Made by a program: the position numbers and the translations under genes. A stretch of DNA of 64,000 nucleotides from Candidatus Omnitrophota bacterium (GTDB lineage Bacteria; Omnitrophota; Omnitrophia; Omnitrophales; Aquincolibacteriaceae): positions 129,238-193,237 of the forward strand of contig JBAYVF010000001.1 in the NCBI GenBank assembly GCA_041674705.1, in the 5' to 3' direction. This document shows positions 4,189 to 64,000 of this stretch, piece by piece (position 1 is the stretch's first letter; each line of letters begins with the position of its first letter). The notes beneath the pieces were generated by a model, which saw only the letters and a program-made list of their open reading frames with translations, ran no database searches and was not told where the DNA came from.

Positions 4189-5181
4189 ATGACCACCTGG
4201 ATCCTTTTTCTTATCCTGCTCGCCCTCACGTTCGATTTTCTGAACGGGTTCCACGATTCCGCGAATTCCATTGCGACGGTCGTTTCCACCCGCGTTCTTT
4301 CTCCACAACATGCGGTGATCTGGGCCGCATTTTTCAACTTTATCGCGTTTCTCTTCTTCGGGCTCCATGTCGCCAATACGATCGGCAAGGGGATCATTGA
4401 TATCAACATTGTGGACAGCCAGATCATCTTTGGCGCCCTGATGGGGGCTTGCGCCTGGAATATCATCACCTGGTATTTCGGCCTTCCGACCAGTTCTTCT
4501 CACGCGTTGATCGGCGGGTTGGTGGGCTCCGCGCTTGTGAAAGCCGGGACAGGATCTTTGGTCTGGAGCGGCATCATCAAGACGGTCGCTTTTATTTTGA
4601 TCTCACCAGTGGTCGGGCTCTTCCTAGGCGTGGTTTATGGCGTGATCGTTCACTGGCTTGCCCGGAAGAGTTCGCCGGCTGGGGTCGATCACTGGTTCCG
4701 GAAAGGGCAGTTGGTTTCCGCCGCGCTTTATAGCCTGGGACATGGCGGTAATGACGCGCAGAAGACCATGGGTATTATCGCGAGCCTTCTTTTCAGCGCG
4801 GGGCTTCTCGGAAAAGAATTCCATATTCCTTTCTGGGTCGTGATCTCGTGTCAGGCCGCCATTGCCATCGGGACGATGTTCGGCGGCTGGAGGATCGTGA
4901 AGACCATGGGGCAAAAAGTGGCAAAACTTCGTCCGGTAGACGGTTTTTGCGCAGAAGCAGGAGCTGCTACGAGCTTGTTCATAGCCTCGGCTTTCGGCAT
5001 TCCGGTCAGTACGACGCATACGATCACCGGCGCGATCATGGGGGTGGGTTCTTTGAAGCGTATGAGCGCGGTCCGATGGGGCGTCGCGGGAAGCATTGTC
5101 TGGGCGTGGATCATTACGATCCCGTGCGCGGCGGCGATCTCGGCTATTTCTTACGCTGCGGCCCGATGGGTTGCCCATTAA
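4189..5181 (+). CDS. pitA: inorganic phosphate transporter, PiT family
   Basis: Both PiT signature halves are present: FDFLNGFHDSANSIAT and GHGGNDAQKTMG. Polytopic membrane protein. Confidence 0.9.
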   Translation: MTTWILFLILLALTFDFLNGFHDSANSIATVVSTRVLSPQHAVIWAAFFNFIAFLFFGLHVANTIGKGIIDINIVDSQIIFGALMGACAWNIITWYFGLPTSSSHALIGGLVGSALVKAGTGSLVWSGIIKTVAFILISPVVGLFLGVVYGVIVHWLARKSSPAGVDHWFRKGQLVSAALYSLGHGGNDAQKTMGIIASLLFSAGLLGKEFHIPFWVVISCQAAIAIGTMFGGWRIVKTMGQKVAKLRPVDGFCAEAGAATSLFIASAFGIPVSTTHTITGAIMGVGSLKRMSAVRWGVAGSIVWAWIITIPCAAAISAISYAAARWVAH

Positions 5182-16753: not shown

Positions 16754-16838
16754 GTCCCAACCACCTTTAAATTTTTTATAGGGTTGGGACAAGGATGGCC
16801 CCAATTTCAACTGCGTTGAAATGGATAGGTATTGGGAC
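16754..16838. repeat. REP/BIME-like palindromic unit pair (GTCCCAACC...GGTTGGGAC + GCCCCAAT...ATTGGGAC)
   Basis: Second unit differs from the 9811 copy only in the hairpin loop (TGC vs TTC) and one C. Confidence 0.8.
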
Positions 16839-19135: not shown

Positions 19136-19142
19136 GGTATCA

Positions 19143-19226
19143 GTCCCAATTTTTATCAATTTCAGAGAATCTGAAATTGGGGCAGTCCTTGCCACCGTTT
19201 AATAAAAAAATCTCAGGCAAGGACAG
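19143..19226. repeat. REP/BIME-like unit pair (GTCCCAAT...ATTGGGGC + GTCCTTGCC...GGCAAGGAC)
   Basis: Read on the minus strand it has the same order and orientation as the other loci. It ends 7 nt before the AI-2E ATG. Confidence 0.8.
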
Positions 19227-53923: not shown

Positions 53924-54105
53924 CTGCCATCAGGAAGATGAAAATTAGAGTTGAGACCGGTTGCATTTTTCTTAAGTGCTGCGTTATGGTCAACTTTACG
54001 GGTTCGCAGTACTTGCACCGTTAACCCGTAAAAATAAATGGAAAACAGGGCGAGATAAGGTATCATGCATCTATCCCAGCTTTAGATTTTTTTATGTAAG
54101 GGGTA

Positions 54106-54239
54106 GTTGGGACAGCCCTGATTTTTATTTTCTTTTCCTGGATGGTAATCAGGGCAGCCCCAATCTCAGCTTTGCTTCGATTGATTGGAATTGGGACTGC
54201 CCCAATTTCAACTTCGTTAAAATTGATAGGTATTGGGAC
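54106..54239. repeat. tandem array of about 3.5 REP/BIME-like palindromic units ending at the downstream ATG
   Basis: TTGGGAC-AG-CCCTGATT...AATCAGGGC-AG-CCCCAAT...ATTGGGAC-TG-CCCCAAT...ATTGGGAC, then C and the ATG at 54241. Confidence 0.85.
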
Positions 54240-54240
54240 C

Positions 54241-61982: not shown

Positions 61983-62699
61983 ATGAAAATAAATCTTCGA
62001 TCGATCCTGACCGGTGTTTTACTCGTTCTGTTTTTGGACGGGGCCATTTTTTTTATCAAAAGAAATAAACCAGCGCCTTCCTCACCGTTGCCGTCCGTAG
62101 CCGGTCTTCCGACGGCTTTAAAAGTCCGAGGGCCCGCAAACGCTCCCGTAAAGCTTGTCGAATTCAGCGATTTCGAGTGTCCCTCTTGTCGTGCGGTGCA
62201 GACAGATCTCCAAGATTTTTTTAAGAGCTATCCCGGCAAGATCCAGCTGACGTTCAAGCATTATCCACTGACCTCGCACAAATGGTCCATTTATGCCCAT
62301 CAAGCCGCGGAATGTATGAACGCGCAGGGAAAGTTCTGGCCGTATCAGGACAAGGTTTATGAAAAGCAGCTGGAGTGGGCGCCTTCGACTGTTCCGCCGG
62401 TAGAGATCCTGGCGCGCTATGCCCGGGAAGTTGGCGCGGATATGGATCGTTTCGGGAAATGCATGGCGGATGTTGCGGTGACACGCGAGATTTACGCCGA
62501 AAAAGAAGAGGGGAATAAGAGGCAAGTGAACGCCACACCGACGTTCTTTCTTGGAGAAGAACGGTTCGTGGGTCCCAAAGAGATGCAGGAGCGTGGCGAA
62601 AACGCCATTCGTAAAGTTCTCGGGTTACCGCCGAAACCGCCTGCTCCCAAGAAACCGGAGCCTCTTGTTCCTGCTCCGCTGAAAGGGGCTTTGAAGTGA
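61983..62699 (+). CDS. DsbA-like thioredoxin-fold oxidoreductase with N-terminal TM anchor
   Basis: VEFSDFECPSCR CxxC motif. Confidence 0.8.
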   Translation: MKINLRSILTGVLLVLFLDGAIFFIKRNKPAPSSPLPSVAGLPTALKVRGPANAPVKLVEFSDFECPSCRAVQTDLQDFFKSYPGKIQLTFKHYPLTSHKWSIYAHQAAECMNAQGKFWPYQDKVYEKQLEWAPSTVPPVEILARYAREVGADMDRFGKCMADVAVTREIYAEKEEGNKRQVNATPTFFLGEERFVGPKEMQERGENAIRKVLGLPPKPPAPKKPEPLVPAPLKGALK

Positions 62700-63172
62700 T
62701 GATCTTTGGACAGGAGAAGACCTATCGGATACTTTTCCTTGGCCGTATGTTCCTGGGGCTGGTCTTTTTGTATTCAGGGTTCATTAAGCTTATGGAACCT
62801 GTCGAAAATTTTCAGGGGGGGATGGCCGCTTATGAGATCATTCCTTACGTGCTCATTCCGCTCCTTGCGCGAGTGATCCCCTGGATCGAATTCATCTTTG
62901 GCGCTTTTTTGATCCTGGGCTATTTGCCGCGAATGAGCGCGCTTGTCCTGGCCGGCATGTCCTGGAGCTTTGTCCTCCTGATCGCCACAACCCGCATTGT
63001 GACCGGAGCTCTTCCCGCCAATTGCGGTTGCTTCGGAGAGGGAAGCCTGCTTCATTTGAAGCCGTACCAAGTCCTTATCATGGATGTTGGCAATACCCTC
63101 ATCGGTATTCGTCTTGCCCTTCTCAAAATCCATCCGTTTAGCCTCGCCGCTTTCCTCAAAACAAAGTCCTGA
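62696..63172 (+). CDS. MauE/DoxX-family membrane protein
   Basis: LVFLYSGFIKL and CGCFG motifs; start overlaps the DsbA-like stop. Confidence 0.7.
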   Translation: MMIFGQEKTYRILFLGRMFLGLVFLYSGFIKLMEPVENFQGGMAAYEIIPYVLIPLLARVIPWIEFIFGAFLILGYLPRMSALVLAGMSWSFVLLIATTRIVTGALPANCGCFGEGSLLHLKPYQVLIMDVGNTLIGIRLALLKIHPFSLAAFLKTKS

Positions 63173-63195
63173 GCGAGGTGCTGGAAAAAAAGACA

Positions 63196-63378
63196 GTCCC
63201 AATTCGTGTCATCCCGCCGCTACAAAGGCGGGATGGGGCAGTCCTCGTCAACCATTTAAGAAGTAAAATTTATGACGAGGACAGAACTTCTGAAATTTGG
63301 TATACTTCCGTCTCTTATTTGACCCCAGATTCGTTCGGGGCGCCCTGATTTCTATAAAAATTTCAAGGAAATCAGGAC
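63196..63378. repeat. mixed-orientation array of REP/BIME-like palindromic units
   Basis: Four units: GTCCCAAT...(ATCCCGCC/GGCGGGAT)...GGGGC; GTCCTCGTC/GACGAGGAC; CCCCAGA..TTCGGGG; CCTGATTTC/GAAATCAGG followed by ACTGCC. Confidence 0.7.
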
Positions 63379-63498
63379 TGCCTCCGAAGTCTGTTGAGAT
63401 TTTTAATTAAGGTTCATCGGGGCGTAGCGGTCGCCACTAATGCTTGGGCGGCCAGCCCCCCAGTGTTTCAGTGGCGGGCGCAGCAGAATAGATTAAAA

Positions 63499-63744
63499 AT
63501 GAATTATTGTGTTTATATTCTGGAAAGTCAGAAAAACGGTTCGCGGTACATAGGCTTCACCCAGGATCTGGCAAAGCGCCTTCAGGAACATAATTCCGGG
63601 AGAAATGTTTCTACCCGAAGCAAAGGGCCATGGAAGCTCTTATATTCTGAAGAGCAGCCAACAAAATTATTGGCTGGGAAGCGTGAAAAGTTCTTTAAGA
63701 GTGGCCACGGACGAATTGTTATAAAAAATCTCATCGGGGCGTAG
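63499..63744 (+). CDS. small GIY-YIG nuclease-family protein
   Basis: YCVYILES...RYIGFT (GIY-YIG), RLQEHN, KREKFFK motifs. The stop codon lies inside tRNA-Pro. Confidence 0.85.
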   Translation: MNYCVYILESQKNGSRYIGFTQDLAKRLQEHNSGRNVSTRSKGPWKLLYSEEQPTKLLAGKREKFFKSGHGRIVIKNLIGA

Positions 63745-63808
63745 CGCAGCCTGGTAGCGCACACGCTTGGGGTGCGTGCGGTCGAAGGTTCAAATCCTTT
63801 CGCCCCGA
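63735..63808 (+). tRNA. tRNA-Pro (TGG)
   Basis: Manual cloverleaf: acceptor CGGGGCG/CGCCCCG, D arm GCGC-AGCCTGGTA-GCGC, anticodon stem CACGC/GCGTG with loop TTGGGGT, T arm GAAGG-TTCAAAT-CCTTT. Confidence 0.9.
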
Positions 63809-63817
63809 AATTCAGAA

Positions 63818-63847
63818 AGCCTGGGAGTTTATCTCCCGGGCTTTTTG
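63818..63847 (+). terminator. intrinsic terminator after tRNA-Pro
   Basis: AGCCTGGGAG / CTCCCGGGCT stem followed by TTTTT. Confidence 0.75.
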
Positions 63848-63941
63848 TGTTTATGGAGGCGGACGAGAGATTTTTCGCCAAAGGACGAATCCGTCCGACG
63901 CAGTGTGGCGGAGAAGGAAGCGTTTGCAAGGGCGGGTGGCC

Positions 63942-64000
63942 GTCCCAATTGACAATTAGTGCTTTAAAGAAAATTGGGACTGCATTGATTTCCAATTATT
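63942..64000. repeat. REP/BIME-like unit (GTCCCAAT...ATTGGGAC), array continues off the right edge
   Basis: GTCCCAATTGACAATTAGTGCTTTAAAGAAAATTGGGAC followed by the TG junction. Confidence 0.65.

Follow-up and report, generated by a model that had tools for sequence, protein, structure and literature searches.

Why does a minimal nuclease gene sit between two copies of the start of a tRNA gene, and take its stop codon from the second of them? The question is raised by a locus at the end of a 64,000-nucleotide stretch of contig JBAYVF010000001.1 from the metagenome-assembled genome of a Candidatus Omnitrophota bacterium (this whole stretch is the window in what follows), where an 81-residue GIY-YIG open reading frame (ORF) runs into the gene for tRNA-Pro(GGG). 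The answer that we favour on balance, with modest confidence, is that a small selfish cassette, made up of the ORF, two hairpins and the duplicate of the tRNA start, occupies the 5' leader of tRNA-Pro(GGG).

The locus and its 81-residue protein

An earlier reading made from the letters of the window (the sequence-only reading) had reported a 16-nt direct repeat, TCATCGGGGCGTAGCG, and exact copies are indeed found on the + strand at 63414-63429 and 63731-63746, identical at 16 of 16 positions. Neither strand of the 64-kb window has a third exact copy; the nearest sequence, at 5154, has three mismatches. With two exact copies only, the repeat is not a widespread intergenic motif. Chance has been ruled out as its origin, since the 16-mer is unique to its two sites and the repeat is present in five related cassettes. 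Copy 1 consists of the leader bases TCAT and tRNA-Pro nucleotides 1-12. Copy 2 likewise holds four leader nucleotides and the first 12 nucleotides of tRNA-Pro, the latter as had been claimed, and is at once the last codons of the ORF and the functional tRNA 5' end. When the tRNA was compared by BLAST with the masked window the repeat was matched with E=0.001, and the idea that the repeat is derived from the tRNA is supported. The intact tRNA-Pro gene (63735-63808, + strand) was called by the Rfam tRNA model, with 62.7 bits, and by ARAGORN. Both give GGG as the anticodon, which corrects the TGG given earlier. The ORF (63499-63744, + strand) lies between the two copies and its TAG stop at 63742-63744 is tRNA nucleotides U8-A9-G10, in agreement with the placement of the stop inside the tRNA by the sequence-only reading.

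The tRNA-Pro unit has a promoter-like site at 63278-63306 (+ strand), in which AGGACA and TATACT stand 17 nt apart and the second of them is preceded by TG. All syntenic loci, empty sites included, keep the motif GACAGAAC..TTTGGTATACT. An intrinsic-terminator-like hairpin at 63813-63847 (+ strand) closes the unit, and the same terminator follows the tRNA in L042, a related contig discussed below. These sole promoter-like and terminator-like sites enclose the leader, the cassette and tRNA-Pro jointly. Since there is no second promoter-like site on the + strand ahead of tRNA-Pro, the GIY-YIG ORF is probably expressed from the tRNA promoter.

The protein is covered almost wholly by its GIY-YIG domain. 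Residues 2-71 match Pfam GIY-YIG (PF01541) with 63.3 bits against a cut-off of 22.6 (E=2.7e-17), and the only further match, to T5orf172, is below threshold. Seven residues, Y6, Y17, I18, G19, R27, H31 and E63, are invariant in 11 aligned sequences, and the residues of the GIY-YIG motif presumably have the catalytic-type roles assigned by analogy with I-TevI and UvrC. A phmmer search of the PDB returned two UPF0213 proteins, BH0048 (1ZG2, 3.6e-8) and EF2693 (1YWL, 6.7e-4). The AF2 model (pLDDT 87.8) has the elements E3-10, E16-21, H24-33, E45-53, H56-67 and H69-79, which make up a beta-beta-alpha-beta-alpha core. Foldseek matched this model to 1ZG2, Slx1 and I-TevI, with BH0048 and the Slx1 nuclease domain (TM-score about 0.7) closer than I-TevI. 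The nearest relatives are thus of the BH0048/EF2693 type and no accessory domain is present, which places the protein in the UPF0213 or prokaryotic Slx1-like minimal clade. The RING/PHD zinc finger of Slx1 proper is absent, as the protein ends after the nuclease core, and so is the C-terminal DNA-binding domain of Seg/I-TevI-type enzymes, which are about 200-250 residues long. Endonuclease models from NCBIfam and PHROGs align to no more than the first 30-40 residues, with scores below threshold. Homology and the structural model together identify the window protein as a Slx1/UPF0213-like predicted nuclease.

At an E value of up to 1e-3, 6,275 clusters at 50% identity match the window protein. 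The phage and plasmid matches in the database are few (13 phage and 6 plasmid records) and all are below 45% identity, and a phage or plasmid origin was rejected. A defence gene was rejected too, with PADLOC giving only 15-bit partial matches to PDC-S14. Between the window and a related contig, L001, the ORF has a dN/dS of about 0.05 with saturated synonymous sites (pS 0.70); this comparison indicates that the GIY-YIG ORF is under strong purifying selection.

Occupied and empty sites among relatives

Is the cassette an insertion, or has the tRNA gene always been arranged in this way? The MauE/DoxX gene upstream was used as an anchor and gave 34 syntenic loci from metagenomes, 15 of them with tRNA-Pro(GGG) downstream. 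Three contigs (L044, L049 and L050) are basal empty sites, in which the conserved promoter stands directly before the tRNA and the gap from MauE to the tRNA is 75-78 nt. L042 is an exact empty site. Its leader unit, spacer, tRNA and terminator are those of the window, and the cassette is absent. Aligned with L042, the window is longer by 317 bp that are bounded by the repeat, at 63430-63746 or, equivalently, 63414-63730. A tblastn search found no GIY-YIG protein in the syntenic tRNA-Pro(GGG) loci, namely L042 and about 14 other contigs. The site is therefore conserved and polymorphic, occupied in the window and L001 and ORF-less in the others. All 74 nucleotides of tRNA-Pro are identical in the window, L001 and L042; in L049, L050 and L054 the tRNA differs at one T-stem pair.

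The exact and the basal empty sites support the earlier proposal that the ORF was inserted at tRNA-Pro. Judged from these alignments, the cassette is an insertion relative to related genomes that has kept one intact tRNA, at no loss to the host. The second half of that proposal, a cassette that brought a replacement 5' tRNA segment with it, looks less likely in view of the cassettes at other loci, each of which is flanked by copies of its own tRNA with 1-9 flanking nucleotides. Duplication of the local target, or conversion of one copy by the other, fits this pattern better than the import of a segment.

Related cassettes are found in L001, L002 and L069, whose proteins belong to the relatives at 62-81% identity, and in L008 (69%). 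All four lie upstream of tRNA-Pro(GGG) with the tRNA start repeated ahead of the ORF, so that the tRNA start is duplicated in all five related cassettes and the same arrangement without a duplicated tRNA segment is not seen. Variations in the length of the repeat were observed. The repeat of L001 is 29 nt long, begins at leader position -4 and ends at tRNA nucleotide 25, the entire D arm being part of it, and the window, L002, L008 and L069 have a short fragment of tRNA nucleotides 1-12. The sequence-only reading had pointed out that the upstream copy cannot form a D arm; this is correct for the window copy, which ends at nucleotide 12, and it reflects the short form of the fragment. The four leader bases match between the two copies of each genome, being TCAT in both copies of the window and L001 and ACGT in both copies of L002. 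L069 carries a tandem copy of the cassette unit. In L008 (1750-1885) the ORF has its own stop and is followed by a second 5' fragment (tRNA nucleotides 1-18), about 105 nt of unrelated sequence and then the intact tRNA, as if this tRNA had later undergone a further, nested insertion with duplication. In L001, the closest relative, a gene for a tyrosine integrase (994-1950) is found some 380 nt downstream of tRNA-Pro, and what follows the tRNA is unlike the sequence in the window; the 3' side of tRNA-Pro is probably used in that genome by a separate integrative element.

The upstream fragment had been described as a decayed 5' tRNA half. This does not hold. RNAalifold applied to the five cassettes gives two hairpins behind the fragment, both on the + strand. 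HP1 (63429-63453) has about 8 bp of the xCCGCCA/TGGCGGx type and takes the slot of the anticodon arm. HP2 (63455-63479) has 8 bp, GCCCCCCA/TGGCGGGC, with one C-C mismatch, and takes the slot of the T arm. Pair 2 of HP1 is G-C, C-G or U-A among the relatives in a hand alignment, and in HP2 two pairs change on both sides with pairing kept (C-G to G-C and G-C to A-U), which amounts to three double-sided compensatory changes over five cassettes (RNAalifold and alignment). Between the window and L001 the first copy of the repeat is 100% identical and HP1-HP2 90%, against 51% at third codon positions and 46% in the linker from HP2 to the ATG. A fragment with hairpins that stays 90-100% identical where neutral sites are at about 50% is maintained and not decaying; a decaying pseudogene has been ruled out, and by comparative evidence the upstream tRNA fragment and HP1/HP2 are under purifying selection. 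The GCTTGGG that had been taken for a vestige of the anticodon region is present (63442-63448) at the 6-nt-shorter offset described. It falls in the loop and 3' arm of HP1, and relatives have GCTTTGG, GATTGGC or TCTTTGG. Anticodon homology has been rejected on these grounds and HP1 stem pairing is the better explanation of the motif. The hairpins are not a general genomic repeat either. The HP1/HP2 module occurs in none of the ORF-less syntenic loci, and just one further CCCGCC..GGCGGG hairpin exists in the 64 kb, in the same intergenic region as the cassette.

Between the promoter and the cassette the leader holds another tRNA-derived unit, at 63335-63387 (+ strand). This ORF-less "acceptor-stem minihelix" opens with tRNA nucleotides 1-7 (CGGGGCG), continues with a long hairpin and ends with CTGCCTCCGA; an AT-rich spacer runs from it to 63413. 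Between the window and L001 the leader unit (63335-63388) is 85% identical, with compensatory changes in the stem, and the spacer 88%. The syntenic contigs have 0-3 copies of such units and the window has one. Where other syntenic loci have them, one to three units of 79-88 nt are found, each opening with tRNA nucleotides 1-7 and forming a long hairpin, the base of which resembles the acceptor stem.

Other hairpins lie near this leader and elsewhere in the window. About 88 bases at 63190-63283, upstream of and into the tRNA promoter and bounded on both sides by GACAG, are additional to what the empty-site contigs have (AAAAAAGACAG|AAC). They contain a TCCCGCC..GGCGGGA hairpin (63212-63233) and a GTCCTCGTCA..TGACGAGGAC hairpin (63241-63282), and L042 and L036 have differing numbers of hairpins at this spot. 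Intergenic GTCC(C)..(G)GGAC hairpins with AT-rich loops are dispersed through the window (16754-16790, 19142-19224, 54074-54240 and 63939-63983). They are often tandem, joined by GGAC(A/T)G(T/C)CC, and look like a family of repetitive extragenic palindromes (REP-like); GTCCCAATT occurs five times in the window against 0.76 expected. One of these hairpins is similar to the stem (CCCTGATTTC/GAAATCAGG) of the leader unit without an ORF.

The same architecture at other tRNA genes

A scan for the family with protein motifs alone, one genome per species, returned 27 loci in at least seven phyla. Omnitrophota, Bacteroidota, Patescibacteria, Planctomycetota, Armatimonadota, Verrucomicrobiota and Ignavibacteriota are represented, as is a metagenome-assembled genome of Pseudomonadales. 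A tRNA gene on the same strand lies within 150 nt of the ORF in 19 of the 27. The tRNAs include those for Pro, Cys, Gly, Arg, Met, Lys, Ser, Ile, Val, Glu and Leu. Beyond these 19, L019 and L032 have a pseudo-tRNA, L021 a tmRNA gene and L029 an antisense arrangement. In L021 the family member (1260-1499) is 122 nt downstream of the tmRNA gene (736-1137, same strand), and tRNA-like genes other than tRNAs may also be used by the family. Two loci come from genomes of isolates (Pedobacter and Litoribacter), so the architecture is not an artefact of binning.

Two configurations are found. In the first, the ORF is upstream and reads into the tRNA, with a 5' tRNA fragment ahead of it; the TAG stop falls at tRNA nucleotides 8-10 in 11 loci (the window, L001, L002, L069, L011, L012, L015, L019, L020, L022 and L032). 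In the second, an intact tRNA is followed by the ORF and then by a 3' tRNA fragment (L003/4/7, L013, L018, L023-L025, L027 and L028). The window is not a one-off footprint and has the local form of a widespread architecture. The partial copies across the ORF are 100% identical to the neighbouring tRNA in most tRNA-associated loci, including the 1-9 flanking bases. Eight loci (L013, L023, L024, L025, L028, L030, L022 and L019) have the anticodon arm exchanged for a GC-rich hairpin of the UCCCG..CGGGA type. In these, identity to the tRNA ends at about position 27 and restarts at about 43-45, and the replacement of 15-21 nt is about the native length. The T arm is likewise replaced in L027 and L028, and hairpins are inserted in tRNA loops in L026, L018, L009 and L022. 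Hairpins of this type are about 20-fold denser within 160 nt of the ORFs than elsewhere in the loci, and HP1/HP2 of the window (xCCGCCA/TGGCGGx) fit the class. Read from the sequences, in all cases the ORF is placed between two tandem tRNA copies of which exactly one is intact, the other being truncated and stripped of its anticodon.

Units have been amplified in tandem in L003, L032, L069 and L013. In L003 (2775-2985) three tandem units of 69 nt lie between tRNA-Cys and the GIY-YIG ORF and a fourth follows the ORF; each is a 3' pseudo-half of tRNA-Cys with the hairpin CCCGGCTTTGCCGGG. Copies without an ORF also exist. L004 (2581-2667, tRNA-Gly) and L045 (tRNA-Pro) have ORF-less 5' tRNA copies with two D-loop hairpins upstream of the intact tRNA, which could be remnants of lost cassettes or the product of an independent process. 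In three Bacteroidota loci where the ORF follows the tRNA (L013, L018 and L024), a terminator-like hairpin with a T run stands between the two, and the ORF may be expressed there by read-through or from a separate promoter.

Public members of the family are often annotated with N-terminal extensions of 20-60 residues (P0005, P0032 and P0040 among them). These extensions are translated upstream tRNA (AQLGER..VVGSIP, GGSNP) or GC-rich hairpins (CLPAGR), an artefact of annotation, and they mark ORFs sited just downstream of a tRNA. A strict T-loop peptide pattern occurs in 3 of 53 extensions; P0005, P0032 and P0040 are individually clear, and the pattern is too crude for quantification.

Explanations and known systems

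How would a selfish cassette of this kind work? In the explanation that we favour, the 81-residue nuclease would nick or cut tRNA genes, the site being either conserved sequence in the D arm or T arm or else a DNA structure. Repair of the breaks by recombination would copy the cassette into empty alleles (homing) and would also yield local tandem, partly truncated tRNA duplications. Upstream fragments that end in the T stem or T loop, at position 56 in L030 and at 52-53 in L022 and L019, are compatible with a break at that place. Repeated conversion between the two tRNA copies would keep the retained segments identical. It may be conjectured that truncation and hairpin substitution disarm the spare tRNA copy, and that they break up homology through which the cassette would otherwise be lost. 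The cut by RNase P falls 7 nt ahead of the ORF stop codon, and for this reason tRNA processing and full translation of the nuclease would be mutually exclusive on any one transcript, which would keep the nuclease scarce.

Several points weigh against this explanation. The window and L001 share the site at saturated synonymous divergence, and from the sequences the cassette looks old, long resident and vertically inherited, and not recently mobile, in this lineage. An exact deletion by way of the repeat would explain L042 equally well. The ORF-less tRNA-derived units in the same leader are partial duplications that exist without a resident ORF, and together with the REP-like hairpins they indicate that the leader region rearranges without one too. 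The conserved hairpin motif is not accounted for by a model in which repair leaves scars. To our knowledge no UPF0213 protein has a known cleavage activity or target and every characterised homing GIY-YIG enzyme has a DNA-binding domain; at 81 residues and with no such domain, sequence-specific recognition is hard to envisage. The terminator-like hairpins of several Bacteroidota loci mean that co-transcription with the tRNA is not universal. Across phyla the relatedness of the ORFs does not significantly track tRNA identity (permutation p=0.61), and the claim that it does, which a neighbour-joining tree had suggested, was dropped. By our own count, tRNA-Pro is over-represented, in about 6 of 19 lineages.

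The ORF could instead encode a host-serving RNA enzyme that acts on tRNA or pre-tRNA in processing, repair or quality control and is expressed with tRNAs for that reason, the truncated copy being an autoregulatory substrate mimic. We consider this unlikely. A GIY-YIG domain of the Slx1-like kind fused to a TrmH-type tRNA methyltransferase has been noted (PMC1564403), and one plasmid record (H15) has a GIY-YIG gene beside a tRNA m6A37 methyltransferase gene. The pseudo-tRNA is still spaced like a tRNA, the substitute for its anticodon arm being of native length, and like the strongly constrained ORF it is under purifying selection. However, at one site some close relatives have the ORF and others lack it, and the use of many different tRNAs in different lineages, the direct repeats and the tandem arrays are traits of mobile DNA and not of a housekeeping gene. 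The truncated copies also lack one acceptor strand, which makes the full tRNA fold impossible, and the nearest structures are DNA nucleases.

A slightly less probable alternative, also doubtful, is that the ORF is a passive passenger. The tRNA leader would then be a hotspot of hairpin repeats and unequal recombination, and the ORF would have no part in the duplication. The 0-3 ORF-less units opening with tRNA nucleotides 1-7 in the syntenic contigs, the ORF-less 5' tRNA copies with D-loop hairpins (L045, and tRNA-Gly in L004) and the GTCC../..GGAC hairpin repeats dispersed through the window are what such a hotspot would leave. Four observations argue otherwise. The association with tRNA genes (19 of 27 loci) is found in phyla without these repeats, where a rough estimate from tRNA density puts chance well under 1%. 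HP1/HP2 occur only alongside the ORF. Of 10 independent contexts that read into a tRNA, 8 have the stop at nucleotides 8-10 where one third would be expected (binomial p about 0.003), and the protein is under strong purifying selection.

It is very improbable, in our view, that the tRNA-identical segment and the UCCCG..CGGGA-type hairpins are a nucleic-acid cofactor (leader RNA or extruded DNA), a guide or scaffold that programs the nuclease to the matching tRNA gene. If true, this would be the smallest guide-directed nuclease system known, its target reset by copying the tRNA in which it landed. A target-identical segment of 12-29 nt does lie directly 5' of two conserved hairpins, just ahead of the nuclease ORF. 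Its identity is kept despite diverged neutral sites, the leader bases covary (TCAT in the window and L001, ACGT in L002) and the hairpin motif is common to several phyla. The geometry is inconsistent, however, as tRNA segments flank the hairpin on both sides when the ORF is upstream of the truncated copy. Gene conversion accounts for the identity equally well, and an 81-residue protein offers little surface for RNA-guided recognition of DNA. We know of no precedent for such targeting in the GIY-YIG superfamily.

Least probable of all, and already largely refuted, is the idea that an island mobilised by an integrase left this remnant, or that a group I intron with its homing endonuclease gene has degenerated here. 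Direct repeats of tRNA sequence flank the inserted DNA, L001 has its integrase gene 380 nt downstream of the same tRNA and the N terminus weakly matches models of group I intron endonucleases, but an island is opposed by the absence of a recombinase from the window (the GIY-YIG ORF is the sole domain-matching ORF between the repeats, no integrase lies in or beside the 317-bp cassette, and that of L001 is on the 3' side of the tRNA) and by duplication of the tRNA 5' end where integrases nearly always duplicate the 3' part, and an intron by the lack of any Rfam match to a group I intron, or to an RNA family other than tRNA, at E up to 10 in 62500-64000, an uninterrupted tRNA (62.7 bits) and only about 70 nt of available non-coding DNA. 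The ORF domain search and the Rfam covariance search thus uphold the sequence-only reading, which had recognised neither an integrase nor an intron core.

The known systems that resemble the cassette of the window each share a part of it. The stand-alone UPF0213 proteins (BH0048 1ZG2, EF2693 1YWL, YhbQ of E. coli and YazA of B. subtilis) are the best match in sequence and fold, with the same minimal size and conserved residues. Structures of UPF0213 proteins were solved two decades ago, and nesting in tRNA genes is not mentioned for these proteins in the literature searched. A survey of the superfamily described the prokaryotic Slx1-like proteins as minimal stand-alone domains with no role assigned (PMC1564403). 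Eukaryotic Slx1-Slx4 shares the fold of the nuclease domain, at 28% identity and with a query-normalised TM-score of about 0.7, and by analogy this likeness suggests recognition of DNA structure, such as branches and stem-loops, rather than of sequence. It differs in having a zinc finger and the Slx4 partner, neither of which is present here, and in its unrelated genomic context. Integrative elements that target tRNA genes are also bracketed by direct repeats of tRNA sequence and preserve an intact tRNA. The cassette of the window, in contrast, is without a recombinase and measures 0.3 kb, not kilobases, and cassettes of the family duplicate either the 5' or the 3' part of the tRNA and remodel the spare copy with hairpins. 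The E. coli tyrT locus has repeated 3' segments of tRNA-Tyr downstream, tandem units with a piece of the neighbouring tRNA like those of the cassettes; we know of no nested nuclease ORF and no exchange of an arm for a hairpin there.

Minimal GIY-YIG proteins of the UPF0213/COG2827 type are very common and have no assigned function, and the architecture offers them a testable role, that of a nuclease gene living on tRNA genes. Its shared features are the nesting between an intact and a disarmed tRNA copy, the stop borrowed from the tRNA, the conserved hairpins and the empty sites in relatives. The literature searched, which left most subscription journals out of reach, holds no description of this cassette architecture or of tRNA nesting for this clade. 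The architecture may account for many of the partial tRNA gene copies and mis-called tRNA-containing ORFs in annotations, and the anticodon-less, hairpin-substituted tRNA copies are a structured element worth study in their own right.

The closest parallel is SegB of phages T4 and T6, a free-standing GIY-YIG homing endonuclease of the tRNA gene cluster, whose gene lies among or next to tRNA genes. Experiments have shown that SegB cuts inside tRNA genes at RAWTSGAAC (PMC13096335; PMC2330249), and tandem amplification of a segment with tRNA and segB requires SegB, its catalytic residues and phage recombination genes (PMC13096335). SegB homologs are enriched near tRNAs of all isotypes (PMC13096335). 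By our own reading, the complement of RAWTSGAAC is the conserved T-loop box. The two systems are alike in the GIY-YIG catalytic domain, in their association with tRNAs of any isotype and in the amplification, truncated units included, which matches the tandem and partial tRNA copies at the cassette loci. They differ in that SegB has about 220 residues with a C-terminal DNA-binding part and is phage-borne, whereas the window protein has 81, consists of the core only and is chromosomal. Unlike the SegB class, the window protein is structurally nearer to Slx1/UPF0213 than to I-TevI. The sections consulted on SegB do not describe for it the overlap of ORF and tRNA, the stop inside the tRNA or the hairpin-substituted pseudo-tRNA that the cassette of the window has. 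Lacking the two-domain architecture, the cassette would be a free-standing GIY-YIG selfish gene at tRNA genes outside the Seg/I-TevI family. If this is true, the nuclease-driven duplication of tRNA genes of the phage SegB type would extend to the bacterial chromosomes of many phyla.

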